Source: an uncultured Burkholderiales bacterium
GTDB lineage: Bacteria; Actinomycetota; Acidimicrobiia; IMCC26256; JAGPDB01
Assembly (NCBI GenBank): GCA_964516875.1
Contig: CAZFAO010000002.1
Span: forward strand, 57,681-121,680
DNA: 64,000 nucleotides
Direction: 5' to 3'
Shown here piece after piece: positions 16,177 through 31,386 of this stretch. The notes beneath the pieces were generated by a model. It worked only from the letters and a program-made list of their open reading frames with translations. It did no database searches and had not been told where the DNA came from. Both the position numbers and the translations under genes were made by a program. Numbering within the stretch: position 1 is the stretch's first letter; each line of letters begins with the position of its first letter.

Positions 16177-17040
16177 ATGGCGCGCATAGTACTTCTCACC
16201 GGACTAGCTGGAGCAGGACGAACAACCGCTGCGGACATTCTCGAAGATATGGGGTATTACGTCATCGAGAATCTTCCAGCACCGATCATCGGCGATGTTG
16301 TGGAACAGATGCACAACCGCAACGATGATGATGGTCATTTAGCCATTGCTGTTGACTTGCGAGATCAATCGTCTATCGACAGCTTGTTGCAAGTGCGTCT
16401 CGACCTTCGCGAACGTGGCGATAGTGTCGACATTGTTTTTCTTGATGCCGATGACGACACAATTATTCGTCGTTTCGAACAAACGCGTCGACCTCATCCA
16501 TACATTTCTGCTGGTGTTCTGACAAAGGGTATTGAAATCGAACGAGAACTTCTCGGCGAAGTATTGGCTTATGCTGACATCCACATCGACACAACGATGA
16601 CTAATCCGACGCAGTTAGGGCAGCAGCTTGCGATGTTGTTTAGCGGAGAAGCGACAGGGACAACAGTTGTTGTTAATTCGTTTGGATTTAAGTACGGCTC
16701 ACCTCGCGATGCTGACTTTCTTTTTGATGTTCGTTTTCTCCCTAATCCTTTTTGGGAACCAGAACTGCGAGAACATTCTGGTTTAGAAAGAGTGATACGT
16801 GATTACGTCAGCACGTTCGACGGGTACGAGAAATATATAAGCTCTCTCACTGAGATCCTTGATATATCTATCAAGGAATTTACCAACTTAGGGAAAGGGT
16901 TTGTGACAATTGCCTTTGGGTGCACAGGTGGCGTGCATCGTAGCGTGACGGTTGTGCATGATGTTTCAACATGGTTACGCAATGCAGGATATAAAGTCAT
17001 TGTTGTTCACCGAGAACTCGATGGAGATGAGTTCGAATGA
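16177..17040 (+). CDS. rapZ: RNase adapter / P-loop nucleotide-binding protein RapZ (YvcJ)
   Basis: LTGLAGAGRT, SFGFKYGSP, FDVRFLPNP, GCTGGVHRSV. Confidence 0.96.
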   Translation: MARIVLLTGLAGAGRTTAADILEDMGYYVIENLPAPIIGDVVEQMHNRNDDDGHLAIAVDLRDQSSIDSLLQVRLDLRERGDSVDIVFLDADDDTIIRRFEQTRRPHPYISAGVLTKGIEIERELLGEVLAYADIHIDTTMTNPTQLGQQLAMLFSGEATGTTVVVNSFGFKYGSPRDADFLFDVRFLPNPFWEPELREHSGLERVIRDYVSTFDGYEKYISSLTEILDISIKEFTNLGKGFVTIAFGCTGGVHRSVTVVHDVSTWLRNAGYKVIVVHRELDGDEFE

Positions 17041-17915
17041 AAAAAATTGTTTCGTTGGGAGGTGGCCATGGTCTTTCCATGGTTTTGCGTTCGTTGCTTC
17101 CCTGCAACGTGGATCAAACAGCGATTGTGAGTGTGGCAGATGACGGGGGTTCGTCCGGGCGATTGCGTCACGATCTCGACATTGTTGCACCCGGCGATAT
17201 TCGATCATGCATCCTTGCTCTTTCACAAACCGATGAAGAAGACCTTGACGCCGCGATGACAAAAATTTTTGACTACCGATTTGATAAAGGTGAACTCGAC
17301 GGCCACTCGTTAGGCAATCTGATCCTTGTGGCACTCGCTCGCGAATTAGGTTCGTTTGAAGCAGCCGTTGCTGAAGCGAGTCGACTGTTGAATGTCCGTG
17401 GACGAGTTCTTCCCGCGACAGAATCGAGTGTTGTGTTGTGTGCTGAAACAAAAAGTGGGTTAGTGCGTGGACAAGTTCAAATTGAACAAACGAAAGATAT
17501 CGATCGAGTGTTTTTGGATCCCGATGACGCATTGCCTTTAGCGGGAGTCGTCGATGCAATTCTTGACGCTGACCATATTCTCTACGCACCAGGAAGTTTA
17601 TTCACATCAGTGATTCCCGTTTTTATTATCCCTGAGATTTCTCACGCACTGAAAATAACGAAGGCAGATGTCACCATGATTATGAACCTTGTTAATCGCG
17701 GTCCCGATACGGAATCGATGACAGGCGACGATCATCTCGCAAAAGTACTTGAACATAATGGTCGTGTCGATCGTGTCATTTGTGATACAGATTCACTGCG
17801 GGTAAAAAATCCACCCGACGGGGTCGAACTAGTTGAATCTATGCTGAGCGAAGAAACTGATACTCACGATCCATTATTACTGCGTCGACTTCTTGTCGAT
17901 ATCCTTAAGCTCTAA
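17037..17915 (+). CDS. yvcK: YvcK/CuvA uridine-diphosphate-N-acetylglucosamine-binding (gluconeogenesis factor) protein
   Basis: SLGGGHGL, VADDGGSSGRLR, PGDIR, GHSLGNL, PGSLFTSV. Confidence 0.95.
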   Translation: MKKIVSLGGGHGLSMVLRSLLPCNVDQTAIVSVADDGGSSGRLRHDLDIVAPGDIRSCILALSQTDEEDLDAAMTKIFDYRFDKGELDGHSLGNLILVALARELGSFEAAVAEASRLLNVRGRVLPATESSVVLCAETKSGLVRGQVQIEQTKDIDRVFLDPDDALPLAGVVDAILDADHILYAPGSLFTSVIPVFIIPEISHALKITKADVTMIMNLVNRGPDTESMTGDDHLAKVLEHNGRVDRVICDTDSLRVKNPPDGVELVESMLSEETDTHDPLLLRRLLVDILKL

Positions 17916-18001
17916 CAATATTCATAATTTTCTTGGCCGAGGCGTCTTTCCCGCTAGTATCGTGACGCAGTATTTTTTGAGCAACCGTGAAAGGTGATGA
18001 T

Positions 18002-19039
18002 ATGAGTCTTCGTGTAGGAATCAATGGATTTGGAAGAATCGGACGTAGTTTTACTCGAGCAATTTTGGCGAGAGGCTTGATGGATGACGTAACCCTTGCT
18101 GCGATTAATGATCCTTTTGGCGATTCGGAATCGATGGCATTTCTCTTAAAGCATGACAGCGTGGGGGGAACACTCGAGCACCGTATTGCTGCGACGAGTT
18201 CTGGTTTAGACATTGATGGTTTTTCTGTAACAAAGTTTGAAGAAAAAGATCCTGCCCAGATCGATTGGAAAGCAGCAGGCGTTGATATCGTCATTGAATC
18301 AACTGGTATTTTCACGGCGCGTGAAGCGGCCGCTGCACACCTCGTTGGTGGTGCAAAGAAAGTTATTATTTCTGCACCGAGTCCTGATGCGGATGCAACA
18401 ATCTGTATAGGTGTTAACGATGACGTTTATTCGCGCAAAGATCACCACGTAATCTCGAATGCGTCCTGTACAACAAACTGTTTGGCGCCCTTGGTAAAAG
18501 TTCTTGACGATAATCTCGGCATCCAACAAGGTTTTATGACTACAGCTCATGCCTACACGTCTGATCAGCAACTCCAGGACATGGCGGTAACAAGCCGAAA
18601 GGGCAAAGCTGATCTTCGTCGCATGCGAGCAGCTGCACTTTCTATTATTCCTTCGTCAACAGGGGCTGCAAAAGCTATTGGTGTGGTATTGCCTCAGCTC
18701 GACGGCAAACTCGATGGAATTGCGTTGCGTGTTCCAACACCCGTTGGTTCGATTACTGACTTAACCGTGCAAGTAGATAAAGCTGCATCCAAAGAAGAAG
18801 TCAATGCGCTCTTTGAAAAAGCATCGAATGATAAAAGTTTCCGAGGAGTCTTAGAGTACACAACGGAAGAACTTGTTTCCAGCGACATTGTAGGAAATCC
18901 TTCATCGTGCATTTACTCAAGTCCAGACACGATGGTTGCAGGTAATTCCATCAAGGTTCTTGGTTGGTATGACAATGAGTGGGGATATTCCAACCGTCTT
19001 GTTGACTTAGCAGTTTTCTTAGAAGAGAGCGGTTTGTAA
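18002..19039 (+). CDS. gap: Glyceraldehyde-3-phosphate dehydrogenase type I
   Basis: GINGFGRIGR, SNASCTTNCLAP, WYDNEWGYS; SD GAAAGG before ATG 18002. Confidence 0.99.
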   Translation: MSLRVGINGFGRIGRSFTRAILARGLMDDVTLAAINDPFGDSESMAFLLKHDSVGGTLEHRIAATSSGLDIDGFSVTKFEEKDPAQIDWKAAGVDIVIESTGIFTAREAAAAHLVGGAKKVIISAPSPDADATICIGVNDDVYSRKDHHVISNASCTTNCLAPLVKVLDDNLGIQQGFMTTAHAYTSDQQLQDMAVTSRKGKADLRRMRAAALSIIPSSTGAAKAIGVVLPQLDGKLDGIALRVPTPVGSITDLTVQVDKAASKEEVNALFEKASNDKSFRGVLEYTTEELVSSDIVGNPSSCIYSSPDTMVAGNSIKVLGWYDNEWGYSNRLVDLAVFLEESGL

Positions 19040-19043
19040 ATCA

Positions 19044-20225
19044 ATGACTGAAGGTCTTCCTCATCTTGTTGATGCAACGATAAATCCAGGCGATGTTGTT
19101 TTCGTTCGTATCGATTGCAATGTTCCTCTGACTGATGATGGCTTTATCGCTGATGCATTTCGTCTTGAAGCTGTAACGCCAACATTGCAGTACCTGAAAG
19201 AAAAAGGTGCGAAAATCATTATTGCTGGAGCGATTGGTCGACCCAAGGGTAAGCGTGACGAATCGCTGACGACAAAATGTATTGCACACTATTTTGAAGG
19301 ACGCGTTTTTGATAATTGCAATTACGTCGATGTCATGCACGGGCCAGTGGTCCAGGATGCTCTTGCTGGAAGTTTTCAAGGCGATGCAATTGTTTTAGAG
19401 AACTTACGGTTTTGGTCGGAAGAAGAATCCAATGATTCTGAATTCGCACGATTACTCGCAGCCGAAGCTGATGTGTATGTCAACGATGCTTTTGGGCAAA
19501 GTCACCGCAATCAAGCCTCGATTGTAGCCATTACGGAATTTCTTCCTTCGTACGCGGGGCTGTGCTTAGAAAAAGAAGTGTCAGCACTTGAAAGTGTATT
19601 GAAAAATGGTAAGGCGCCCGTGGTGGGCATAATTGGTGGTGCAAAAGTATCAGACAAGCTTGGAGTGATCGAAGCGCTGATGGATCGATGCGATTCGCTA
19701 TTGATTGGCGGAGCCATGGCCTACACATTTCTCAAGGGCCAAGGAAAAGCAATCGGTCAGTCGTTGTGCGAAGATAATTTTGTTTCTACAACAGCCGAAT
19801 GGATGAAGTCAGGGAAAATAATTCTTCCGACAGACTCGGTTGTTGCCGAAACAATGACCTCAACGGACACAAAGATTACTGGTGAGATTGCAGACGGGTT
19901 CGCAGGTTTCGATATCGGCCCAGAAACGATAAAAAGATTCTCAGACATTATTTCCCAAGCGCAAACAATCCTCTGGAATGGCCCTATGGGGGTCTTCGAA
20001 CAACCCCAATTCGCACAAGGAACGCAAAGTATCGGTCAGGCTGTTGCTGATTCGAATGGATTTAGTGTTGTGGGTGGAGGAGATTCCGTTGCTGCCATTC
20101 GCGCAATGAAACTAGAAGACAAAATTGATCACGTATCAACAGGTGGGGGAGCCACGCTCGAATATATCGAGACCGGTTCTCTCGTGGGTGTGGATGCACT
20201 AATGAACACACAAGTAAAAGGATAA
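19044..20225 (+). CDS. pgk: Phosphoglycerate kinase
   Basis: RIDCNVP, LENLRF, NDAFG, GGAKVSDK, WNGPMGVFE, HVSTGGGA. Confidence 0.98.
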   Translation: MTEGLPHLVDATINPGDVVFVRIDCNVPLTDDGFIADAFRLEAVTPTLQYLKEKGAKIIIAGAIGRPKGKRDESLTTKCIAHYFEGRVFDNCNYVDVMHGPVVQDALAGSFQGDAIVLENLRFWSEEESNDSEFARLLAAEADVYVNDAFGQSHRNQASIVAITEFLPSYAGLCLEKEVSALESVLKNGKAPVVGIIGGAKVSDKLGVIEALMDRCDSLLIGGAMAYTFLKGQGKAIGQSLCEDNFVSTTAEWMKSGKIILPTDSVVAETMTSTDTKITGEIADGFAGFDIGPETIKRFSDIISQAQTILWNGPMGVFEQPQFAQGTQSIGQAVADSNGFSVVGGGDSVAAIRAMKLEDKIDHVSTGGGATLEYIETGSLVGVDALMNTQVKG

Positions 20226-20227
20226 AG

Positions 20228-20995
20228 ATGAGAAAGCCAATTATTGTCGGTAACTGGAAAATGAATTTGACGCACCTTGAAGCAATCGCTTTAGTGCAAA
20301 AACTTTCTTACCGTTTAGACGATGCCATATTTGATGACTGCGAAGTTGTTGTTTGTCCTCCCTTTACTTCGTTGCGTTCTGTGCAGACAACAATTGATTC
20401 CGACAAAATGGAAATTGCTCTCGGTGCGCAAAATGTCAATGAGAATGAGAAGGGCGCCTATACCGGTGAAGTTTCAGCAGCGATGCTTTCCAAACTGACT
20501 GTTCGCTATGTTCTTGTTGGTCATTCAGAACGACGAACGCACTGCACAGAAACGAACGAACAAACAGCGGCGAAAGTCAAAATCGTCCGGAAATTCGAAA
20601 TGACACCCATCTTGTGCGTGGGTGAGACACGTGAAGAGCGCGACGCGGGTGAATCTCAAGCAATCGTCGAGGCACAAGTTCGTGAAGGTTTAGCGTCCAT
20701 TGCAAAAAGTGATGTAGAAAACTGCGTCATTGCGTACGAACCGGTCTGGGCAATTGGAGCCGGTGAGCCTGCAACAGTTGAGCAAGCAAATGACATGATC
20801 TTTCATATTCGAGGAATTCTCGATTCGATACACAAAGGTGCGAGCGAATCGACCCGAGTGATCTACGGCGCCAGTGTCGATCCTGGAAACGCCAAAACTT
20901 TCCTCTCTCAAGATGGAATCGATGGACTCCTCGTCGGCGGTGCGAGTCTGGAAGCAGACGGATTCTCGCGACTCGTTATCTCAGCAGTGAAGTAA
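20228..20995 (+). CDS. tpiA: Triosephosphate isomerase
   Basis: GNWKMN, GHSERR, AYEPVWAIG, DGLLVGGASL. Confidence 0.99.
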   Translation: MRKPIIVGNWKMNLTHLEAIALVQKLSYRLDDAIFDDCEVVVCPPFTSLRSVQTTIDSDKMEIALGAQNVNENEKGAYTGEVSAAMLSKLTVRYVLVGHSERRTHCTETNEQTAAKVKIVRKFEMTPILCVGETREERDAGESQAIVEAQVREGLASIAKSDVENCVIAYEPVWAIGAGEPATVEQANDMIFHIRGILDSIHKGASESTRVIYGASVDPGNAKTFLSQDGIDGLLVGGASLEADGFSRLVISAVK

Positions 20996-21011
20996 ACTCC
21001 TGTATAACCAT

Positions 21012-21134
21012 GTCATTCAGAGCGGATCCATCGCGTCATTCAGAGCGAAGCGAAGAATCTCTGCCGATACACTCTACGTACATTGAGATCCTTCGGCGTT
21101 GCCTCAGGATGACGGCCTTGTCCTCCAGGATGAC
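21012..21134. repeat. REP/MITE-like palindromic element (family A: GTCATYC...GAAGRATCTC / GAGATYCTTCG...GATGAC)
   Basis: gtcattcagagcgaagcgaagaatctc (21035-21061) and gagatccttcggcgttgcctcaggatgac (21085-21113), with extra outer arm copies at 21012 and 21121-21134. Confidence 0.85.
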
Positions 21135-21168
21135 CAGATTCCCACTCTGTTGCGGCTAAGATTTCCTC

Positions 21169-21405
21169 GTGTTTATTATCGCATTGATCGTGTTACAAGT
21201 TATTTCAGCAATATGTTTGCTCGTCTTTGTCCTTCTCCACGCTGGTCGCGGGGGTGGATTATCTGATTTGTTTGGTGGAGGATCCATGGGTGGATCGATG
21301 GCGGGTTCCACTGTTGTGGAGAAAAACCTTGACCGTTTGACCGTTGTAGCAGCCATTGTCTTTGTTTTTTGCTGCATTATCTTAGGGATTCACTTTTCCG
21401 GCTGA
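21169..21405 (+). CDS. secG: Preprotein translocase subunit SecG
   Basis: VLLHAGRGGGLSDLFGGG...STVVEKNLDRLT; follows tpiA. Confidence 0.96.
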   Translation: MFIIALIVLQVISAICLLVFVLLHAGRGGGLSDLFGGGSMGGSMAGSTVVEKNLDRLTVVAAIVFVFCCIILGIHFSG

Positions 21406-21486: not shown

Positions 21487-23157
21487 GTGAAGTTTACGAA
21501 TAGAACACGTTTAGTTTCAATTGCTCTCATCCTTATTCTTGCTTTGGCCGCATCTGCCTGTTCGAGTAATGAAGAAGCATCTGGTGGTTCAGTAACAATT
21601 GGCGCAGAACAAGAACCAGATTGCTTGAACTTTATTGGTTCGTGCTCGGGTTCATCTTGGGGATTCTGGATGGTCGCGGTCAACACACTTCCTCGTGCGT
21701 ATTCAGCAGAGCGTGTGGGTGATGAAGACAAGTGGGAATACAAAGCAACAAGCTTGTTAGCTAAAGAAGCTGAACTCGAAACTGATCCTGTTCAAACGAT
21801 CAAGTACACCATCAGTGATGATGCTGTTTGGTCGGATGGCGAACCAATCGTTGGTCAAGACTTCGTGTTCACATGGGACCAAATTGCAAATGGATCTGAC
21901 GTATACGATTCGACTGGTTATGTTGACATCGATTCCGTCAAAGTCGATCCTGACAACGAAAAAGTTGTTACGGTCACAATGAAAAAGAATTATGCTGCAT
22001 GGAAATCATTTTTCGGCGGTAACTACGGTGTTCTCCCTGAGCACTTGCTGAAGGGAAAAGATCTCAACGACGCAATGGGTAGTGGGTATACCTTCTCGGG
22101 TGGACCGTTTAAGTTGACAGAAAATGGTTGGGAAAAAGGTAAATCAATAACTCTGATTCCTAACGATAAGTACTGGGGCGATAAGCCGAAACTGGATAAA
22201 GTCGTATTCCGTTTCCAAGCAGATACAACTGCTGAATTCACAGCATATAAAGCAGGCGAAGTTCTTGCGATCTATCCTCAACCTCAAATGGACGTGATTG
22301 ATGCACTGAACGGTGAATCGCTAGAAGGCGAACAGATTGTTAATGCTGTAACGGGAAACACGGAAGCGCTCTGGATAAACAATGACGCTGCGCCTTTTGA
22401 TGAAGAAGGTGTGCGTCAAGCACTGGGCTACACAATTGATCGAAATGAAGTTGTCAATTCATTGTTCGGCGAAATCGGAGTCAAGAAAGCTGTTAATAGC
22501 TTTGTGCCGCCGGTTGTCTCATCATATTCAGACCCTAAGGCGTTTGCGGATTACAAACCTAATTCAACAAAAGCGGATGCTCTCTTAACTGATGCAGGAT
22601 ATGCAAAGAGCTCTAACGGTAAATGGGCAAAGAACGGTAAGCTGCTTTCGTTTGAAATCCATACAACTGAAGGAAACGAACGACGTAAGTTGACATTGGA
22701 AAATATCCAAAAGCAACTCAACGATGAGGGCTGGACCGTGGATCTCAAGTTCGTCCCTGCCGGCGACTTGTTCGGAGACCTCGGCCCAACTGGTCAGTTC
22801 CAGGTTGCGTTGTATGCTCAAGTTCTCACAACGCTTGATCCATCGAACTGTAATCTCTTCTGTTCAGTCAATATACCAACAGATGAAAACGAAAACACAG
22901 GAAATAACTGGACGCATACAAACGTGAAGGGAGCAGATGAACTTCTCGGAAAAGTTGATTCTTCGTTGAGTGAATCTTCCCGAGCCAAAGCAAGCAAGGC
23001 CGCCGAAAAGCTTCTTGCAGGTGCTGCGACATCATTCCCTCTCGACCCACTTCCCAATATCTTCCTCTGGAGCGACAAGCTTTCAGGAGATATTGACGAG
23101 AACCCTATTCAAGGACCTTTCTGGACTTTGAATAAGTGGAGCTTGGATGAGGAATAA
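21487..23157 (+). CDS. oppA: Peptide/nickel ABC transporter substrate-binding lipoprotein (family 5)
   Basis: Lipobox LAASAC, WSDGEPIVGQDFVFTW, GPFKL, VRQALGYTIDR. Confidence 0.92.
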   Translation: MKFTNRTRLVSIALILILALAASACSSNEEASGGSVTIGAEQEPDCLNFIGSCSGSSWGFWMVAVNTLPRAYSAERVGDEDKWEYKATSLLAKEAELETDPVQTIKYTISDDAVWSDGEPIVGQDFVFTWDQIANGSDVYDSTGYVDIDSVKVDPDNEKVVTVTMKKNYAAWKSFFGGNYGVLPEHLLKGKDLNDAMGSGYTFSGGPFKLTENGWEKGKSITLIPNDKYWGDKPKLDKVVFRFQADTTAEFTAYKAGEVLAIYPQPQMDVIDALNGESLEGEQIVNAVTGNTEALWINNDAAPFDEEGVRQALGYTIDRNEVVNSLFGEIGVKKAVNSFVPPVVSSYSDPKAFADYKPNSTKADALLTDAGYAKSSNGKWAKNGKLLSFEIHTTEGNERRKLTLENIQKQLNDEGWTVDLKFVPAGDLFGDLGPTGQFQVALYAQVLTTLDPSNCNLFCSVNIPTDENENTGNNWTHTNVKGADELLGKVDSSLSESSRAKASKAAEKLLAGAATSFPLDPLPNIFLWSDKLSGDIDENPIQGPFWTLNKWSLDEE

Positions 23158-23172
23158 ATAGCAAATGATTGC

Positions 23173-23205
23173 AGTGGGGATCCTTATAGGGTCCCCACTT
23201 TTTTT
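23173..23205 (+). terminator. Rho-independent terminator/attenuator after the binding-protein gene
   Basis: AGTGGGGATCC-TTATA-GGGTCCCCACT hairpin followed by a T run. Confidence 0.85.
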
Positions 23206-23232
23206 ATGGATAAGTCCTAGTCTGATTGCACC

Positions 23233-24234
23233 ATGGGTGTTTTTCTTTACGTACTGAGACGCTTAGGTATAAGCATTTTGCTTTTAATACTGGCTTCATT
23301 TCTGGTTTATGCAGGGGTAAGAGCGACTGTTGATCCAACCGCTGGTTTTGCAAATGCAAAAGATAAGGAATTGCGCATTCGTGAACGTGAACGACTCGGG
23401 TTAGACCGACCACTCATTACTCAATATAAAGAATGGGCTACAGGCGTTATGAGCGGTGACCTGGGAAAGGGAGATCGCGATCAAGAGTTAGTATCAGCAA
23501 AACTTAAACGTGGATTTACGAACACGATCGATTTAATCGTGTGGGGTTCTCTCCTCGCTGGCTGTTTAGGAATATCGTTTGGCCTGATCGCTGCAATTAG
23601 GCGCAACAAGCCTGCCGATTACACGCTTTCAGCTTTTTCTTACTTCGGTATCGCAATACCGACATTTGCATTTGCATATGTTTTGTTGAATCTTTTTTCT
23701 CTATGGCTTCCACATTTTTTTGGACAAAAAACTCCATGGTTATCAACAATAGGAACAACCGATGGGAGCTTTGGTCAAAGCGCAACAGGCGGATGGTCAT
23801 GGTCAAGCATTGTCGACTATTTTCGACATATGGCGATGCCCGTCATGGTGTTGTCTATCCAACTGATTGCTAGTTGGAGTCGTTATCAACGTGCATCGAT
23901 GATTGAAGCATTGCAAAGTGATTACATTCGGACCGCACATGCAAAAGGAATGTCCAAGAGACGCGTGTACTTTCGACACGGCTTGCGCAATGCCGAGGTT
24001 CCGATGGTGACAGTGATCGCATTAGATATTGGGTTGCTCTTTTCTGGTCTCATTATCACCGAGTACGTTTTTTCTATTCCTGGAATGGGTTCTATATTTT
24101 TGAAAGCACTCGACAATGGTGATGCAACAACAATTGCGGGCTGGACCATTTTGACGGCATTCTTTGTTATCATTGCAAACTTCATTGCGGACCTTTTATT
24201 GCCCGTTATCGATCCAAGGATTAGAACACAATGA
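23233..24234 (+). CDS. oppB: Peptide ABC transporter permease
   Basis: LGLDRPLITQY, EALQSDYIRTAHAKG (EAA loop), ITEYVFSIPGMG. Confidence 0.95.
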   Translation: MGVFLYVLRRLGISILLLILASFLVYAGVRATVDPTAGFANAKDKELRIRERERLGLDRPLITQYKEWATGVMSGDLGKGDRDQELVSAKLKRGFTNTIDLIVWGSLLAGCLGISFGLIAAIRRNKPADYTLSAFSYFGIAIPTFAFAYVLLNLFSLWLPHFFGQKTPWLSTIGTTDGSFGQSATGGWSWSSIVDYFRHMAMPVMVLSIQLIASWSRYQRASMIEALQSDYIRTAHAKGMSKRRVYFRHGLRNAEVPMVTVIALDIGLLFSGLIITEYVFSIPGMGSIFLKALDNGDATTIAGWTILTAFFVIIANFIADLLLPVIDPRIRTQ

Positions 24235-25139
24235 GTGATGTAGATAACGTCGACCAATTGCGCGTGGGAATATCCAAAGGGGAAGTCATTGCTGCCCCCG
24301 TACGGCATCGAGCATTGAAAAGATTTTGTGCGAATAAAGCAGCACTGGTTTCGTTGATATTTATTGTTCTCTTCTTGATTGTTTGTTATTTCCCTCGCAT
24401 CATTACCGATTTTCCTCAAAACGATATTGTTACATCCCGCAAAAGGCTTCCACCGAGTACAACGCATTGGTTGGGAACTGATTTGCAAGGGAGAGACATG
24501 TTGACAGAGCTGTTATATGCAAGTCAGATTTCTTTGCGCATTGCGATTGCTGTTGGAATCGTATCCACTTTTATTGGTGCTGTTATAGGCGCTGCGGCTG
24601 GGTATTTCAGTAAGTTTTTTGATTCAATCCTCATGCGAGCAACGGATTTATTTTTAGTAGTACCACAAATCGTTATTCTTGCGATTGCGCTTAAAAAGTT
24701 TGGTGATAACTATATATCGATGGTGACGATCATTGCGCTTATCTCCTGGATGTACACCGCGCGTCTTGTGCGTTCGCAAGTGCTGTCGTTGAAATCGCGA
24801 GAATACATTGAAGCTGCACGATTGAGTGGTCGGGGGAGTCTCTATATTATTTTTCGGCATCTCATCCCGAATTCATGGAGTGTTATTGCCGTGAGTTCGG
24901 CCTTCACAATTGCGGGTGCAATCCTTCTGGAATCAACAGTGTCGTTCTTAGGATTCGGTGTACAGCCACCATTGACATCACTCGGAAATATTCTCTTCGC
25001 TCTCAAAGGACTCGCTGTTGGTCGGTATTGGTACCTGTTCTTTGCTCCAGCAACAGTTATCTTTCTTGTTGTGCTGTCATTTAACTTCATCAGTGATGGT
25101 TTGAGAGACGCTTTCGATCCCAGATCGGAGCAATCATGA
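24231..25139 (+). CDS. oppC: Peptide ABC transporter permease
   Basis: HWLGTDLQGRD, REYIEAARLSG, ESTVSFLGFG, DGLRDAFDP. Confidence 0.95.
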   Translation: MSDVDNVDQLRVGISKGEVIAAPVRHRALKRFCANKAALVSLIFIVLFLIVCYFPRIITDFPQNDIVTSRKRLPPSTTHWLGTDLQGRDMLTELLYASQISLRIAIAVGIVSTFIGAVIGAAAGYFSKFFDSILMRATDLFLVVPQIVILAIALKKFGDNYISMVTIIALISWMYTARLVRSQVLSLKSREYIEAARLSGRGSLYIIFRHLIPNSWSVIAVSSAFTIAGAILLESTVSFLGFGVQPPLTSLGNILFALKGLAVGRYWYLFFAPATVIFLVVLSFNFISDGLRDAFDPRSEQS

Positions 25140-26140
25140 GTGACGAACTAATTCTTGAAGTGCATAACCTCTCCGTTACATACGGAAAAAAAGATAATAA
25201 AACATATGCGGTTCAAGATGTATCGCTGTCGCTCGCCAAGGGTGAAACAATAGGAATTGTCGGCGAATCGGGATGCGGAAAAACAACTGTCGCTTTAGCA
25301 CTCATGGGATTGCTCGATGCGCGTACAACAGTCACGGGCACAATGACACTTTTAGGGAAAGAATATGATCTTTCGAAAATGTCGTATAAAGACTGGCGAG
25401 CAATCCGTGGCGACCACACCGCCATGGTATTTCAAGATTCACTGGCATCGTTGAATCCGCTCAAACGCATTGGTGAGCAAATTGCTGAGGCAATGTACGT
25501 CAAAGACAAATACGATAAGAAGCAGTCTCGTATTCGGGCTCTTGAACTTCTTGAAATGGTGGAAATCCCCGATCCGGCTCGGCGTGCGCGACAGTATCCC
25601 CATGAGTGCTCGGGTGGCATGCGTCAGCGGGCCATGATTGCCATGGCGCTGGCCAATAGTCCTGATCTATTGATTTGTGACGAACCAACAACGGCACTCG
25701 ACGTAACGGTGCAAGCTCAAATTTTAGAGATGATTAAACGGTTGCAACTCGAAATGGGAATGGCCGTCATCCTCGTCACGCACGACCTTGGTGTGGTGAG
25801 CGCAGTCACCGACAAAGTGAACGTGATGTATGCGAGCAAGATCGTCGAAATGGGAAATACTCTTGATCTGATGAATGCACCGTCTCATCCGTATGCAGAT
25901 GCTTTGCTTCTTGCTATGCCCGATATCACAGCAGAACGTGGGAATTTACATGCCATCCCTGGAGTGCCGCCGACGCTCAACAAACAATTTGAAGAATGTC
26001 CATACGGCCCACGCTGTTCTCGTCATGATGAAGCATGTGATATTGAAATGCCGCCGTTGGTTACTGTGCAATCACGTGATGGTATCCGTAAATGTGCATG
26101 TGTGCATCCACTCAGTGTCTTAGAAAAAGTGGGTGACTGA
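25136..26140 (+). CDS. oppD: Peptide ABC transporter ATP-binding protein
   Basis: GESGCGKT, YPHECSGGMRQR, DEPTTALD, C-terminal oligopeptide CPYGPRC. Confidence 0.96.
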   Translation: MSDELILEVHNLSVTYGKKDNKTYAVQDVSLSLAKGETIGIVGESGCGKTTVALALMGLLDARTTVTGTMTLLGKEYDLSKMSYKDWRAIRGDHTAMVFQDSLASLNPLKRIGEQIAEAMYVKDKYDKKQSRIRALELLEMVEIPDPARRARQYPHECSGGMRQRAMIAMALANSPDLLICDEPTTALDVTVQAQILEMIKRLQLEMGMAVILVTHDLGVVSAVTDKVNVMYASKIVEMGNTLDLMNAPSHPYADALLLAMPDITAERGNLHAIPGVPPTLNKQFEECPYGPRCSRHDEACDIEMPPLVTVQSRDGIRKCACVHPLSVLEKVGD

Positions 26141-27288
26141 TGGCACAAGTAACAATCGAGGGAGTTTCTCAGGATGCGACAGATACGCTTTTGCGCATCG
26201 ACGATCTCCATAAAACATTTACAACACGATCTCGCGGACGAAAAATTTCAACATTTGCCGTTCGAGGAGTAAGTCTGAGTATTCACCGTGGTGAATCGGT
26301 GGGAGTTGTGGGGGAGTCTGGTTGTGGAAAAACAACGCTTGCTCGGATGATAGCTGGCCTCGACACTGCTTCTCGCGGAATTATGAGCTTTGGTGGTAAG
26401 CCAATGAAATTCAATAAAGCTTTGCGTCAAAAAATATCGATGGTATTTCAAGATCCTTATGCAAGTTTGAACCCTCGGATGACAACAGCGTCATGTATTC
26501 GAGAACCAATGCATCTCCTCTCTGACGAACAACTGCACAAAAAAATTAAAGAACTCACGCGAGATAAGAAAGACAACGAATTCGAAGCGATACCACGCAC
26601 GCGACTGAAAAAGTTCTTATTACGGTTTGAATCACAGCGAAAAAAATCCGAACGTCGTTATGTTTCGGCCCTTATTGAACTAGTGCAACTTCGTCCCGAG
26701 TGGGCGCTTCGTTATCCGCATGAATTTTCCGGAGGTCAACGTCAGCGAATTGGTATTGCACGTTCACTTGCGACTTCGCCTGATCTACTCGTGTTGGATG
26801 AACCCGTCAGCGCACTTGATGTCAGCGTGCAAGCTGGAATTATTACATTGCTCCGTCGGCTCAAAGCGGAGAACGATCTTGCGATGTTATTTATCAGTCA
26901 TGACTTACGTATTGTTCGGCATCTCTGTGATCGTGTTGTCGTGATGTATCTAGGGCAGATCATGGAAGATGCGCCTAGCGACCTTCTGTTTTCTCATCCT
27001 CGCCATCCCTATACACGAGCATTGTTGGGTTCGATCCCGACCACGCCAGCACGGGGAGAACGCGAAGAAGGGGAGAAATCGGTCAATGCAGAAATTAGCA
27101 ATGATTCGCTTGAAAGTGAGATCCTTCCCATCACTGTTCTGCGCGGAGAACTGCCCAGTCCGACGAATCCTCCGCAGGGATGCCCATTTCGCACACGATG
27201 CGAACGAGCAACAGAGGCATGCACTGTTCAGCCCCCGTTGGCCACAATGACAGATGGCCGCCTGGTGGCTTGTCATTTCCCGTATTGA
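26140..27288 (+). CDS. oppF: Peptide ABC transporter ATP-binding protein
   Basis: GESGCGKT, YPHEFSGGQRQRIGIAR, DEPVSALD, GCPFRTRC...VACHF. Confidence 0.96.
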   Translation: MAQVTIEGVSQDATDTLLRIDDLHKTFTTRSRGRKISTFAVRGVSLSIHRGESVGVVGESGCGKTTLARMIAGLDTASRGIMSFGGKPMKFNKALRQKISMVFQDPYASLNPRMTTASCIREPMHLLSDEQLHKKIKELTRDKKDNEFEAIPRTRLKKFLLRFESQRKKSERRYVSALIELVQLRPEWALRYPHEFSGGQRQRIGIARSLATSPDLLVLDEPVSALDVSVQAGIITLLRRLKAENDLAMLFISHDLRIVRHLCDRVVVMYLGQIMEDAPSDLLFSHPRHPYTRALLGSIPTTPARGEREEGEKSVNAEISNDSLESEILPITVLRGELPSPTNPPQGCPFRTRCERATEACTVQPPLATMTDGRLVACHFPY

Positions 27289-27324
27289 CGCTTCACCTTA
27301 GGTATCAGACGACGATAAATACCT

Positions 27325-28863
27325 GTGATGCAATTACGGTCTACTCTCCGTGCCCACTGGGCTCTGGCTTTGTGTATTCTCGTCGCGTCCTTGCTCACTT
27401 TTTCAGGATGTTCTATCTTGCAGGCACAAGCAGAACATGAACGACCGAATAACCTCACAGTGTGGACATCGACAGATTTAACGCATGATCCATTAGGCAG
27501 TAAATCGACAGAACAGCATTTCATTACATCGTTGGAGAACCGCTCTCTTTTTGGTCTGACTAAAAAAGGTGAGATTCAAGAAGAGCTTGCACGCAAATAT
27601 GAAGTATCGGCAGACGGACTCACGATAACAGTGACATTAAATGATGAAACGTTCTCTGACGATTCTCCCATCACATCTCAAGACGTCAAGTCAACATACA
27701 CGCGTGTGATGCAATTGGGAGGTGATTTCGCGAAGCTCTTAGAAAATATCAAGGGCTCGGGCGAAGCTAAAAATGGATCTGATTTTTTTGGTATCGCCGT
27801 TCCTGATTCGAACAGCGTTATTTTTTCCCTCATTGCTCCGGACCCATTTTTTGCCTACCACCTTGCTCATCCCGCGACAGGCATTCTTCCCAGCTCGACA
27901 ATAGGTGCGGCTGGAGCATTTACATTCGGGGCGCACTCTGGTTTATATACAGCAGAATCAATTTCAAATATTATTGATTCCAGCACAATATTTACCCCAC
28001 GAGATGAAGAACTTCCTGTAATCACGATCGTTCGAAAATCAGAAGCAGATATCGCAAAATCGCCTTCAACGACGGATGCGGATATTATTCTCGCGGCTAC
28101 AACGGATTCCGACAGATTCGAACAAATATATATTCCGGAGTTGGCAATCGCCTCGTGGAATCTCTACGTAAAAGACGCGTCATCTCCTTTGGCTGATATT
28201 CGACTTCGTCAAGCAATATTGATTGCAATGGACAACAAAGAATCAATTGCTGCATATTCAATACGTGCTTCAACTCCAAAGAAATTTACAGGAGACACAT
28301 TTGATTCAGTAGCGTGTGCTGCTAGTTGTGAAACTGACAAGGAAGCAGCGAAGAAGCTTGTCGAACAGATTTATCCAACGGGGAATGCGCCAACGCTCAC
28401 GATTGATATTGAGGACAACGCAATCCAGCAAGATCTTGCAGCATCGGCAGCAAAAAAGCTCGAGGAAATCGGCATTCCAACTACCGTGAAATCGCATGAT
28501 GCCATGGAGCTATCCAACGTGATAGCTCGTGGGGAAGTACAGCTATTCCGTTTCGGATGGATATCAGAAGTTGCCGTGGGCGGGGATCCACTTGTGCGTA
28601 GCTTCAAAGCAGACTCAACGGAAAACGTTTCAGGAGTCACCGATGCGACACTCGAAACCGATATTGCTGCTTATCAAAGTGCAACGGGTTTTCAAGACAA
28701 GTTGAAAGATTCCCAAGCGATCCAAGAGCGTATAAAGGATCTCTGGTTAACTCGTCCTGTTGCACATTTCCATAAAATTGTTACTGTCGACAAGTCCATA
28801 GAAAATCTTACTTTTGACTACTACGGGCGAGCTTCCGTGGGCGATATTCGCATTTCCTCGTAG
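27325..28863 (+). CDS. Second, divergent family 5 ABC substrate-binding lipoprotein
   Basis: Lipobox TFSGC, ELARKYEVSADGLT...FSDDSPITSQDV, LRQAILIAMD. Confidence 0.8.
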   Translation: MMQLRSTLRAHWALALCILVASLLTFSGCSILQAQAEHERPNNLTVWTSTDLTHDPLGSKSTEQHFITSLENRSLFGLTKKGEIQEELARKYEVSADGLTITVTLNDETFSDDSPITSQDVKSTYTRVMQLGGDFAKLLENIKGSGEAKNGSDFFGIAVPDSNSVIFSLIAPDPFFAYHLAHPATGILPSSTIGAAGAFTFGAHSGLYTAESISNIIDSSTIFTPRDEELPVITIVRKSEADIAKSPSTTDADIILAATTDSDRFEQIYIPELAIASWNLYVKDASSPLADIRLRQAILIAMDNKESIAAYSIRASTPKKFTGDTFDSVACAASCETDKEAAKKLVEQIYPTGNAPTLTIDIEDNAIQQDLAASAAKKLEEIGIPTTVKSHDAMELSNVIARGEVQLFRFGWISEVAVGGDPLVRSFKADSTENVSGVTDATLETDIAAYQSATGFQDKLKDSQAIQERIKDLWLTRPVAHFHKIVTVDKSIENLTFDYYGRASVGDIRISS

Positions 28864-28935: not shown

Positions 28936-29020
28936 GTCGAAGTGGCGGAATTGGCAGACGCGCTAGTTTAAGGGACTAGTGCCTTCGGGCGTGGGGGTTC
29001 AAGTCCCCCCTTCGACACCA
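28936..29020 (+). tRNA. tRNA-Leu, anticodon AAG (type II, encoded CCA)
   Basis: GTCGAAG/CTTCGAC acceptor stem, D-loop GGAATTGGCAGAC, anticodon stem CTAGT/ACTAG with loop TT-AAG-GG, variable arm GCC-TTCG-GGC, T-arm GGGGG-TTCAAGT-CCCCC, ACCA end. Confidence 0.93.
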
Positions 29021-29150
29021 TATTTATTCAAGGGCGTCCTTGAACCCCTGGGACTGAGTTCATTCTGGTCCCCCCTTCGACACCATATTTATTCAAGGGC
29101 GTCCTTGAACCCCTGGGACTGAGTTCATTCTGGTCCCCCCTTCGACACCA
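29003..29150 (+). repeat. Perfect 65-bp tandem repeat beginning with the last 18 nt of tRNA-Leu
   Basis: GTCCCCCCTTCGACACCA at 29003, 29068 and 29133; the two 47-bp intervening segments are identical; degenerate remnant gcgtccttgaac at ~29165-29176. Confidence 0.95.
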
Positions 29151-29349: not shown

Positions 29350-31386
29350 ATGGTCCTACACAACAAAGCTAGCCAAATACGGAAATGGGTCGCTTTAACG
29401 GGAGCCGCCATATTAGTGGTGGCATTATTTTCTTCAGCGTATGCTGCTCCTGTCACAGCTAAGGATATCTTTGTGAACGTTGGTGGTCCTGGATTTAATA
29501 CAACACCAAAAATTTTGGCTTGTACATCAACATCAAATTGTTCTGGTTACCTAACAGGTTCAGTGACCGTAACAAATAAACCAACTCTGAAAATCGCAAA
29601 CTCGAGCATCTTCAACGTGATGTATCAAACTCAGATCCAAGGAGATATGCATTTCAGTATCCCTGTTACGGGTGGAAAGTACAGCGTCCATTTAGCTTTT
29701 GCTGAAACGGATGGATTGGCCGCAGGGAATCGAGTATTTAATGTCGGGATGGAAGGCAGTAATGTTCTGTCGAATTTCGATGTTGCAGCTGCAGCTGCAG
29801 GTCCTGCTCGTGCTGTCACTCGCGAACACACACTTTATATTTCTGATGGCAAACTCAATATCGACTTTCAAGGGACCAAAGGAAAAGCAATATTAAGTGC
29901 GATTCTCGTTCAACGCGTTGGAGATCTTCCTCCGGTAACAACAGCAACATCAACTTCTACCACGACTACAACAACGACGACAACAACGACAACGACAACA
30001 CCACCACCAACTTCGAGTTGTACAGGTGTTGCAGTAAATCCTGGAGATAATATTCAATCGAAAATTGATGCAAATCCAGTCAACACAACATTTTGTTTGG
30101 CTCCAGGAACATACCGTGGACAGAGTCTGTCTCCAAAAGCAGGGGATAAGTTCATTGGAAAAGGAACGTCAGCAAGTGCAGTAGTTCTCAACGGAGCAAA
30201 CCTCATCTCAAATCCTGTCGCATCAGGTGGTTTGTACTACGCAGCGAATCAAACACAAGAGGGACATCGCTCGGGTGAATGTGCTCCTGGATACCCAGTA
30301 TGTAACCGTCCAGAAGTTTTGTATTACGACTCACGACCACTTATTGGTGTCGATGCACTTTCGAAAGTTACAACAGGCAAGTTCTTCTTCGACTATGCCG
30401 CTGATCGTGTCTACTTTGCAGATAACCCAACAGGACACACTGTTGAAATCGGTGCAACATTGCGTGCCTTTAACCGAGGTGCAGCAAATGTCACAATCAA
30501 CAACTTGACTGTAGAAAAGTATGCAAATACTGGTCAACAAGGAACTATTGAAACCGATACCAATTGGGTTATCGATAATGTCACAATTCAGCTCAACGGT
30601 GGACAAGGAATCACGATGTTTGGTGCCGGTCCTACATTGAAAAATTCTCGTGTGCTTCGCAATGGACAAATTGGTGTCGGAGCAAACGGAAATGTTGATG
30701 GAAACAGTGACTATGGCCATGCTGTCAACGCTGTGTTTGTCGATCGAACCGAAATTGCTTACAACAACAGCAACAATTACGAAATGGGCTGGGAGGCAGG
30801 AGGCACCAAGTTCTGGAGCACAAAGAACAGTGTGCTTTCGAACAACTGGGTTCACCATAACAATGGGCCAGGGTTGTGGGCTGACGGCTTTAACGAAAAC
30901 ACAACATACTCTGGCAACTTGATAGAAGACAACGTTCAAAACGGAATCTTCCACGAAATTAGTGGTAGTGCAAAAATCCTTGACAATAAAATCTATCGAA
31001 ATGGATGGGTCAACGGAAAGCAACAAGATGGAAGCAACGCTATCCAAACATGTTGGACTGCTATCTGTATCTCGTCAGGTAAGAATGTTGAGATTGCACG
31101 CAATGATGTGAAAGATAACGGACGCGGCCTCGTCATCGTTGACGATCCACATTATCCAGATCCCACATACGGATTGAACGTGCACGACAACACATTCACA
31201 AACAATGGCGATCAAGCGGTTGCGATGTCGATTCCAGCGTATCAAGCTATCGGCGGAAAAGTGACCAACTTCACGTTTGATAAAAACCGCTATTCGACAG
31301 GATCATTGTTTGGATTTTTAGGTGCAGCACGGGACTGGTCAGAATGGCGCGGCTCCGGATTTGATCCGAACGGAACAATGGGCTGA
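29350..31386 (+). CDS. Secreted malectin-like domain + Thr-rich linker + right-handed parallel beta-helix protein
   Basis: Signal peptide ending AYA; YSVHLAFAE...RVFNV...FDV...KLNIDF (malectin); beta-helix repeats NVTIQLNGGQGI, NWVHHNNGPGLW, NLIEDNVQNGI. Confidence 0.85.
   Translation: MVLHNKASQIRKWVALTGAAILVVALFSSAYAAPVTAKDIFVNVGGPGFNTTPKILACTSTSNCSGYLTGSVTVTNKPTLKIANSSIFNVMYQTQIQGDMHFSIPVTGGKYSVHLAFAETDGLAAGNRVFNVGMEGSNVLSNFDVAAAAAGPARAVTREHTLYISDGKLNIDFQGTKGKAILSAILVQRVGDLPPVTTATSTSTTTTTTTTTTTTTTPPPTSSCTGVAVNPGDNIQSKIDANPVNTTFCLAPGTYRGQSLSPKAGDKFIGKGTSASAVVLNGANLISNPVASGGLYYAANQTQEGHRSGECAPGYPVCNRPEVLYYDSRPLIGVDALSKVTTGKFFFDYAADRVYFADNPTGHTVEIGATLRAFNRGAANVTINNLTVEKYANTGQQGTIETDTNWVIDNVTIQLNGGQGITMFGAGPTLKNSRVLRNGQIGVGANGNVDGNSDYGHAVNAVFVDRTEIAYNNSNNYEMGWEAGGTKFWSTKNSVLSNNWVHHNNGPGLWADGFNENTTYSGNLIEDNVQNGIFHEISGSAKILDNKIYRNGWVNGKQQDGSNAIQTCWTAICISSGKNVEIARNDVKDNGRGLVIVDDPHYPDPTYGLNVHDNTFTNNGDQAVAMSIPAYQAIGGKVTNFTFDKNRYSTGSLFGFLGAARDWSEWRGSGFDPNGTMG
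29938..30015 (+). repeat. ACN-rich low-complexity tract encoding a Thr/Pro linker
   Basis: TTATSTSTTTTTTTTTTTTTTPPPTS. Confidence 0.9.

Follow-up and report, generated by a model that had tools for sequence, protein, structure and literature searches.

The question raised by this locus is how CUC and CUU codons are read where the tRNA-Leu gene at a leuU-type position encodes the anticodon AAG in place of GAG. Apart from tRNA-Arg(ACG), bacterial tRNAs with an A at position 34 are regarded as rare exceptions, and they have been reported in AT-rich Lactobacillales, Mollicutes, and Prochlorococcus. In GtRNAdb surveys Leu(AAG) is found almost entirely in Bacilli, plus Mollicutes and Prochlorococcus, and the genera in which ANN anticodons are fixed are 60–70% AT. 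A sequence-only reading of the 64-kb stretch of DNA studied here (the window, taken as a whole) had described bacterial A34 tRNAs in comparable terms, and its summary agrees with the published papers. The replacement of GAG by AAG, with a TadA of widened specificity editing the product to IAG, is established in Lactobacillales (PMC13249217, PMC11472039). For Acidimicrobiia, or any other actinobacterium, we found no published report of Leu(AAG) in a search of the literature other than Rafels-Ybern 2018 and 2019. The phenomenon itself is already known elsewhere; what appears to be new is the breadth of the swap, which includes GC-rich genomes, and the GAG-type anticodon loop retained by the clade to which the window belongs.

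A class II tRNA-Leu gene with an encoded A34

ARAGORN identified a single tRNA in the 64-kb window, a tRNA-Leu with anticodon aag, and the Rfam tRNA family RF00005 matched positions 28936–29017 (50.8 bits, E = 5.8e-08; the gathering score is 29). The features of this region are:

28936..29020, + strand: tRNA-Leu(AAG) gene (ARAGORN, Rfam RF00005); class II, long variable arm, A73, encoded CCA
28968..28974, + strand: anticodon loop U32 U33 A34 A35 G36 G37 G38 (sequence)
29003..29150, + strand: 65-bp tandem repeat, 2.3 copies, 100% identical (TRF, pattern search, repeat finder)

The anticodon arm reads GCG-CTAGT-TTAAGGG-ACTAG-TG, in which CTAGT and ACTAG form a stem of 5 bp and A34 is window nucleotide 28970. 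The anticodon AAG, A34 at this nucleotide, G37, and the 5-bp stem had all been assigned in the sequence-only reading, and the ARAGORN call and the sequence agree on them. The acceptor stem has 7 bp and the D stem 3 bp, the T stem pairs GGGGG with CCCCC, and the variable arm is paired. The 3′ end (...CTTCGAC-A-CCA) supplies an encoded CCA and the discriminator A73, an identity element for LeuRS. A plain MFE fold of the gene did not give a cloverleaf, which is common with single tRNAs. When 50 distinct family members were aligned, the 23 cloverleaf pairs were formed in 99.9% of 1150 cells, and nine of the 23 showed compensatory changes on both sides; none of 500 shuffles equaled the pairing or the covariation, and slid registers came nowhere near either. 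The tRNA-Leu(AAG) gene is a real class II tRNA gene, structurally constrained and conserved, and is no pseudogene. A promoter and terminator scan around it gave no signal exceeding the shuffled expectation.

Each 65-bp unit of the tandem repeat starts with the 18 nt that end the tRNA (GTCCCCCCTTCGACACCA, including the CCA), followed by a 7-bp hairpin, TTCAAGG-GCGT-CCTTGAA, and two additional partial tRNA 3′ ends lie at 29068–29085 and 29133–29150. An integrated element or att site was considered as the source of the repeat and is disfavored. Since a pattern search turned up the tRNA 3′ end nowhere else in the 64-kb window, the partial ends appear more likely to be a local tandem duplication than a mobile-element att site. 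The repeat is absent in three related loci (L001, L003, and L007). The gene directly 3′ of the tRNA (29350–31386) encodes a 678-aa secreted protein with a malectin domain, a Thr-run linker, and a right-handed beta-helix domain.

The gene lies at the secG-linked leuU locus

The gene order of the window is polA-rpsA-...-uvrB-uvrA-uvrC-rapZ-yvcK-gap-pgk-tpiA-secG, and the features that precede the tRNA are:

21169..21405, + strand: secG (NCBIfam TIGR00810, 66.6 bits); last gene of the gap-pgk-tpiA-secG cluster, 17987–21405
21487..28863, + strand: Opp/Dpp-type peptide ABC transporter operon (Pfam, NCBIfam), between secG and the tRNA

The operon contains two SBP_bac_5 genes (21487–23157 and 27325–28863), two permeases, and two ATPases, and it ends 72 nt before the start of the tRNA. 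In Escherichia coli, leuU, the gene for tRNA-Leu2(GAG), is co-transcribed with secG. The sequence-only reading had placed secG 7.5 kb upstream of the tRNA, as the TIGR00810 match confirms, and had seen in this an echo of the secG-leuU linkage; the echo is real, and stronger than had been claimed. Among the collected loci, a SecG homolog lies upstream and on the same strand in 90 of the 110 that bear this tRNA body, and in 65 of those 90 no more than 207 nt separate secG from the tRNA.

The acceptor GTCGRAG, together with the D arm and the T arm, is common to the window tRNA and the GAG tRNAs of Acidimicrobiia and Coriobacteriia. In loci of other Acidimicrobiia, gathered via TpiA with 10-kb flanks, the tRNA-Leu that follows secG has the same body with GAG in some cases and AAG in others, and no locus among those examined has both. 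Based on the shared acceptor and D arm, the upstream secG, and the occurrence of either AAG or GAG at one locus, the window gene is the ortholog of the secG-linked leuU tRNA-Leu(GAG), with G34 changed to A; whereas the leuU family has the anticodon GAG, the window has AAG. The earlier view that the body is of the Leu(GAG) type and that AAG may have replaced GAG is thereby supported. Like E. coli leuU, the window gene follows secG in the same orientation and is a CUY-reading class II tRNA with G37 and A73; it differs in having A34 rather than G34, and its clade has the 7.5-kb ABC operon after secG. Besides the window, the arrangement secG-ABC operon-tRNA was present only in L003, L007, L128, L136, and, in part, L001 among the loci compared, with a gap between secG and the tRNA of 7.3–7.7 kb in this clade (7.5 kb in the window). 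The operon is an insertion between secG and the tRNA, with secG the ancestral upstream neighbor.

An origin from tRNA-Leu(CAG) was also considered and rejected: the acceptor and T arms of the Saccharibacteria Leu(CAG) differ, and the synteny is that of the leuU(GAG) family. The tRNA-Leu(CAG) genes of four Saccharibacteria and other Patescibacteria loci (L002, L004, L005, and L006) have D and anticodon arms identical to those of the window tRNA except at nucleotide 34, which looks like conservation or coincidence and not common origin. Another feature of the gene order is that gap comes immediately after rapZ and yvcK (16177–19039), with no ORF there that fits whiA; in other Actinobacteria whiA lies between yvcK and gap.

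A34 is shared by related genomes

Searched for as an exact pattern, the 85-nt tRNA recurred unchanged, A34 included, in two further species-level genomes (L001 and L003), where it sits behind the orthologous solute-binding-protein gene, although the flanks have diverged and the proteins are 58–69% identical. A variant in L007, L128, and L136 has the anticodon stem CAAGC/GCTTG, compared with CTAGT/ACTAG in the window, and the loop UUAAGGU. The stems of the window and L007 differ by two compensatory double changes, and the CAAGC/GCTTG type of A34 variant is found in five low-GC metagenome contigs as well. The comparison with related genomes that the sequence-only reading had proposed thus finds A34 again in L001, L003, and further members of the clade. 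The sole support for a sequencing or assembly error for G34 is the rarity of A34 in bacteria. Against it, independent assemblies agree on A34: at least five other genomes of the clade have it, as do the five metagenome contigs, and the genome stretches with A34 number at least 119 overall. Because the identical A34 tRNA occurs in L001 and L003 despite their diverged flanks, we consider an error to be excluded in practice.

The window falls in the class Acidimicrobiia (Actinomycetota) by its nearest TpiA relatives. The closest relative by TpiA is L007 (MAG STL-ACT1), at 78% identity, with all others at 58% or less among the loci compared. The window clade is an isolated, deep, low-GC clade within Acidimicrobiia, and the GC content of the window is 46%. 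Judged from these sequences, the G34-to-A34 substitution is fixed in the leuU ortholog of this clade.

Spread of the swap

To establish how widely A34 occurs, one genome per species was searched with the 5′ half of the tRNA with A34 as the pattern, position 38 being left free. This gave A34 matches in at least 119 stretches of species-representative genomes, mostly Acidimicrobiia, with GC contents of 37–71%. The Acidimicrobiia among the matches listed include Acidimicrobiaceae, Microthrixaceae, Ca. Microthrix, MedAcidi-G2B and G3, as well as complete chromosomes of Ca. Poriferisodalis and the complete genome of the cultured strain IMCC26256; the matches listed from outside the class are Bradymonadales, other Myxococcota, one Planctomycetota MAG, and Limosilactobacillus. 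G34 with the Acidimicrobiia-type acceptor was present in at least 120 stretches of species-representative genomes, and those listed come from other Acidimicrobiia (Ilumatobacteraceae, Iamia, and Ferrimicrobium), Coriobacteriia, and Rubrobacter. Given the occurrence of G34 in other Acidimicrobiia, Coriobacteriia, and Rubrobacter, this tRNA body originally had GAG, and AAG is derived. The A34 and G34 sets had no assembly prefix in common among the matches listed, which is weak evidence. In metagenomes, the acceptor GTCGAAG was found with GAG 65 times in contigs of at least 53% GC and with AAG five times in contigs of 35–45% GC.

The swap is common across the class Acidimicrobiia and not peculiar to one lineage. 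The A34 and G34 states are scattered on the TpiA trees, and Fitch parsimony on these single-gene NJ trees gives about 10 state changes, although the trees are weakly resolved and Coriobacteriia nest inside. As the TpiA trees are too weakly resolved for events to be counted, we state only that the swap occurred in more than one lineage, based on the loop types and on the cases in other phyla.

Several of the loci deserve individual mention. Leu(AAG) genes with the loop CUAAGGA and other acceptors are present in 15 loci (L107, L108, L111, L116, L120, L127, L130, L146, L153, L154, L163, L164, L183, L195, and L199), which are labeled Bradymonadales, Persicimonas, Microvenator, other Myxococcota, Deltaproteobacteria, proteobacterium, and one Planctomycetota MAG. 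These are further lineages with the swap, and no clear secG was found upstream of these tRNAs in the loci checked. Six other loci (L001, L136, L152, L197, L093, and L118) are labeled Burkholderiales, Bordetella parapertussis, Bifidobacterium breve, and Dehalococcoidia, and their tRNA-Leu(AAG) is of the Acidimicrobiia type; in L093, L136, and L197, where the sequence is long enough, the tRNA is preceded by a secG homolog of the same orientation. These contigs are probably mis-binned or their records mislabeled. One Acidimicrobiia MAG has two slightly different Leu(AAG) genes 2.7 kb apart (L200:3091-3180 and L200:5774-5861), both with the loop CUAAGGA.

Position 38 covaries with position 34

We compared positions 32–38 of all Leu(GAG) and Leu(AAG) genes in the collected loci, a census in which three contigs are counted twice:

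G34 loops, n = 133: UUGAGGG 83, UUGAGGU 50
A34 loops, n = 119: CUAAGGA 80, UUAAGGA 32, UUAAGGG 4, UUAAGGU 3

A38 is present in 112 of the 119 A34 tRNAs and in none of the 133 G34 tRNAs, and C32 often joins it (the 80 CUAAGGA loops). The seven A34 genes without A38 are those of the window clade and L114. Their loops, UUAAGGG and UUAAGGU, are the two GAG-type loops with position 34 alone changed, and the window clade is the only sizeable A34 group without A38. The association of A34 with A38 holds in Acidimicrobiia, Bradymonadales, Limosilactobacillus, and the Planctomycetota MAG, and the tRNAs from the other phyla have unrelated acceptors.

The TadA of Streptococcus pyogenes deaminates Leu(AAG) and that of E. 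coli does not, and the editing consensus is YUAMGRA (PMC11472039). In addition, the deaminase-bound loop keeps a C32-A38 pair, and A38 is contacted by a loop whose conservation extends from TadA to ADAT3 (PMC9643335). The loop YUAAGGA matches the S. pyogenes site consensus, and a C32/A38 loop restores the C32-A38 pair. All seven positions fit YUAMGRA in 112 of the 119 A34 tRNAs; in the window loop, UUAAGGG, positions 32–37 fit and G38 does not. Ribosomal tuning of anticodon-loop strength, as opposed to recognition by TadA, is another possible source of the covariation. For comparison of the loops, tRNA-Arg(ACG) was sought and was absent from all loci examined.

Codon usage

Of the 1883 Leu codons in 57 ORFs of the window, 26.2% are CTT and 25.8% CTC. 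In rpsA (1292–2629) there are 17 CTC and 12 CTT among 35 Leu codons, which bears out the earlier impression, gained by eye, that these two codons dominate in this gene. The ratio C/(C+T) for Leu CUY in the window,.495, is the highest of the eight four-codon boxes, with Arg CGY next at.461 and the other six at.36–.43. For Acidimicrobiia of 62–67.5% GC, CUC makes up 42.8% of Leu codons at A34 loci and 41.2% in G34 relatives, and no codon-usage shift between A34 and G34 Acidimicrobiia was detected at matched GC. At the other extreme, L007, which is among the lowest-GC members of the window clade, has CTT far above CTC (.239 and.045). CUA is not raised, and the same is true of Lactobacillales (PMC13249217).

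Since the CUC share is undepressed in the window and in A34 Acidimicrobiia, the CUY decoder of the A34 lineages reads CUC well. Good reading of CUC would fit I34, or a hidden G34 tRNA, but is not what unmodified A34 alone should give, and codon usage does not separate I34 from G34. As for an edited tRNA-Leu of the Lactobacillales type, CUU and CUC are both well used and CUC is not avoided. CGT, CGC, and CGA together account for 84% of the Arg codons of the window; based on this heavy use, TadA is almost certainly retained for tRNA-Arg(ICG) in the window organism, which is free-living.

Decoding by tRNA-Leu(AAG)

The most likely mechanism for the window clade, and one that we consider probable, is deamination of A34 to I34 by TadA. 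The housekeeping tRNA adenosine deaminase would convert A34 to give tRNA-Leu(IAG), which would read CUU and CUC about equally and CUA weakly. The swap would have arisen repeatedly across Acidimicrobiia and other phyla, and the loops of nearly all lineages would afterward have gained A38, and often C32, coming to resemble the loop of tRNA-Arg(ACG) that TadA recognizes. In the window clade this second step (A38/C32) would not have been taken. We rate deamination higher for the A38-type majority than for the window clade, whose loop is without A38. The reading of CUU and CUC after conversion of Leu(AAG) to IAG has been demonstrated in Oenococcus and Streptococcus; I34 has been demonstrated in Streptococcus, and AAG and GAG occur together in no family (PMC13249217). 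A regex search of six-frame ORFs for the deaminase motif [HC][AS]E...PC..C found no TadA in the window or in 203 loci. The sole match to the motif, in a Parcubacteria locus, was a dCMP-deaminase-like ORF and not TadA.

An alternative, which we regard as rather unlikely although it is the most serious competitor of deamination, is that A34 functions unmodified, reading CUU by Watson-Crick pairing, while CUC, and perhaps CUA and CUG, are read by superwobble or by other Leu isoacceptors. The tRNA would then resemble Mycoplasma tRNA-Thr(AGU), and the low-GC clade would represent an early stage of the swap that precedes adaptation to TadA. I34 expansion reportedly began with unmodified A34 tRNAs, a view ascribed to work by Rafels-Ybern from 2019. 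The GAG-type loop, with U32 and G38 or U38 kept against A38 in nearly all other A34 tRNAs, is in keeping with this view, as are the low GC of the metagenome contigs in which A34 accompanies the same acceptor, compared with the 65 higher-GC G34 members, and the great excess of CUU over CUC in the lowest-GC members of the clade, such as L007. In addition, ANN tRNAs for four-codon boxes that were engineered into E. coli were unmodified and tolerated (2026 preprint). These points have to be set against the codon usage of the window itself, in which CUC and CUU each account for 26% of the Leu codons, C/(C+T) for Leu is not depressed but exceeds that of every other four-codon box, and rpsA favors CTC. 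By the wobble rules, and by PMC11066159, an A:C wobble is expected to make a poor decoder. For the low-GC clade specifically, we hold it a doubtful possibility that the GAG-type loop leaves A34 undeaminated and that CUC, a quarter of the Leu codons, is read by unmodified A34 or by another isoacceptor.

A separate Leu(GAG) gene elsewhere in the genome might also decode CUY, the gene described here being a dispensable or decaying copy. The view of the genome through 64 kb alone leaves room for such a gene, yet we consider it improbable. The window gene occupies the ancestral leuU position, where the relatives have their only locally visible CUY tRNA, and A34 persists among species with only 48–78% protein identity, in tRNAs whose stem changes are compensatory and whose cloverleaf is intact. 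AAG and GAG were together in no locus examined and in no assembly among the matches listed, and the low-GC metagenome contigs with this tRNA body had AAG in five of five cases and GAG in none. The Lactobacillales, with no family that has both (PMC13249217), point in the same direction. Deamination by TadA is our preferred reading.

Comparison with known A34 tRNAs

In the Lactobacillales with Leu(AAG)/(IAG) (Oenococcus oeni, S. pyogenes, S. mutans, and Lactobacillaceae), as at the leuU locus here, the A34 gene stands in place of GAG and not beside it. The window tRNA is also like theirs in being a CUN-box class II tRNA with G37 in a setting where CUU and CUC are heavily used, and the loop YUAAGGA is common to most Acidimicrobiia A34 tRNAs and the Limosilactobacillus genes. 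However, the published cases are AT-rich, whereas the organisms described here are Actinomycetota (Acidimicrobiia) with genomes of up to about 70% GC; the window loop, UUAAGGG, has G38 where theirs has A38, and I34, demonstrated in Streptococcus, is for the window clade the product that we infer. With tRNA-Arg(ACG)/(ICG), the canonical TadA substrate, the window tRNA shares a gene-encoded A34. Most A34 tRNA-Leu genes appear to have converged on the tRNA-Arg(ACG) loop, C32 U33 A34 N35 G36 R37 A38, from which the window loop differs in having A35 rather than C35, G37 rather than A37, and G38. The unmodified A34 tRNAs found in Mollicutes, of which Mycoplasma tRNA-Thr(AGU) is one, resemble the window tRNA in having an ANN anticodon in a four-codon box and in belonging to a lineage under AT pressure. 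Mollicutes have reduced genomes, some of them without TadA (PMC3711424), unlike the free-living window organism with its heavy use of CGU, CGC, and CGA.

Implications

The presence of the swap in MedAcidi groups, Microthrix, the sponge-associated Poriferisodalis, and the cultured IMCC26256 indicates that it is common across one class of Actinomycetota. A34 occurs in genomes of up to about 70% GC, in which CUC is the most used Leu codon, and AT pressure alone is therefore undercut as the reason for its retention. The near-perfect covariation of positions 34 and 38 in at least four phyla offers a testable rule for bacterial TadA substrates. In addition, a single tRNA family includes GAG as well as AAG in two settings, a GAG-type loop and an Arg-like one, which makes it a natural comparison set.

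If editing is confirmed, the broader specificity of TadA should extend to a wider range of mRNA editing in Actinobacteria that abound in marine, freshwater, soil, and wastewater habitats. If instead A34 is undeaminated in the low-GC clade, this clade would show, in a living organism, the first step that has been proposed for I34 expansion, and the A38/C32 loops elsewhere in the class would mark a later step, adaptation to TadA, at which several phyla arrived independently.
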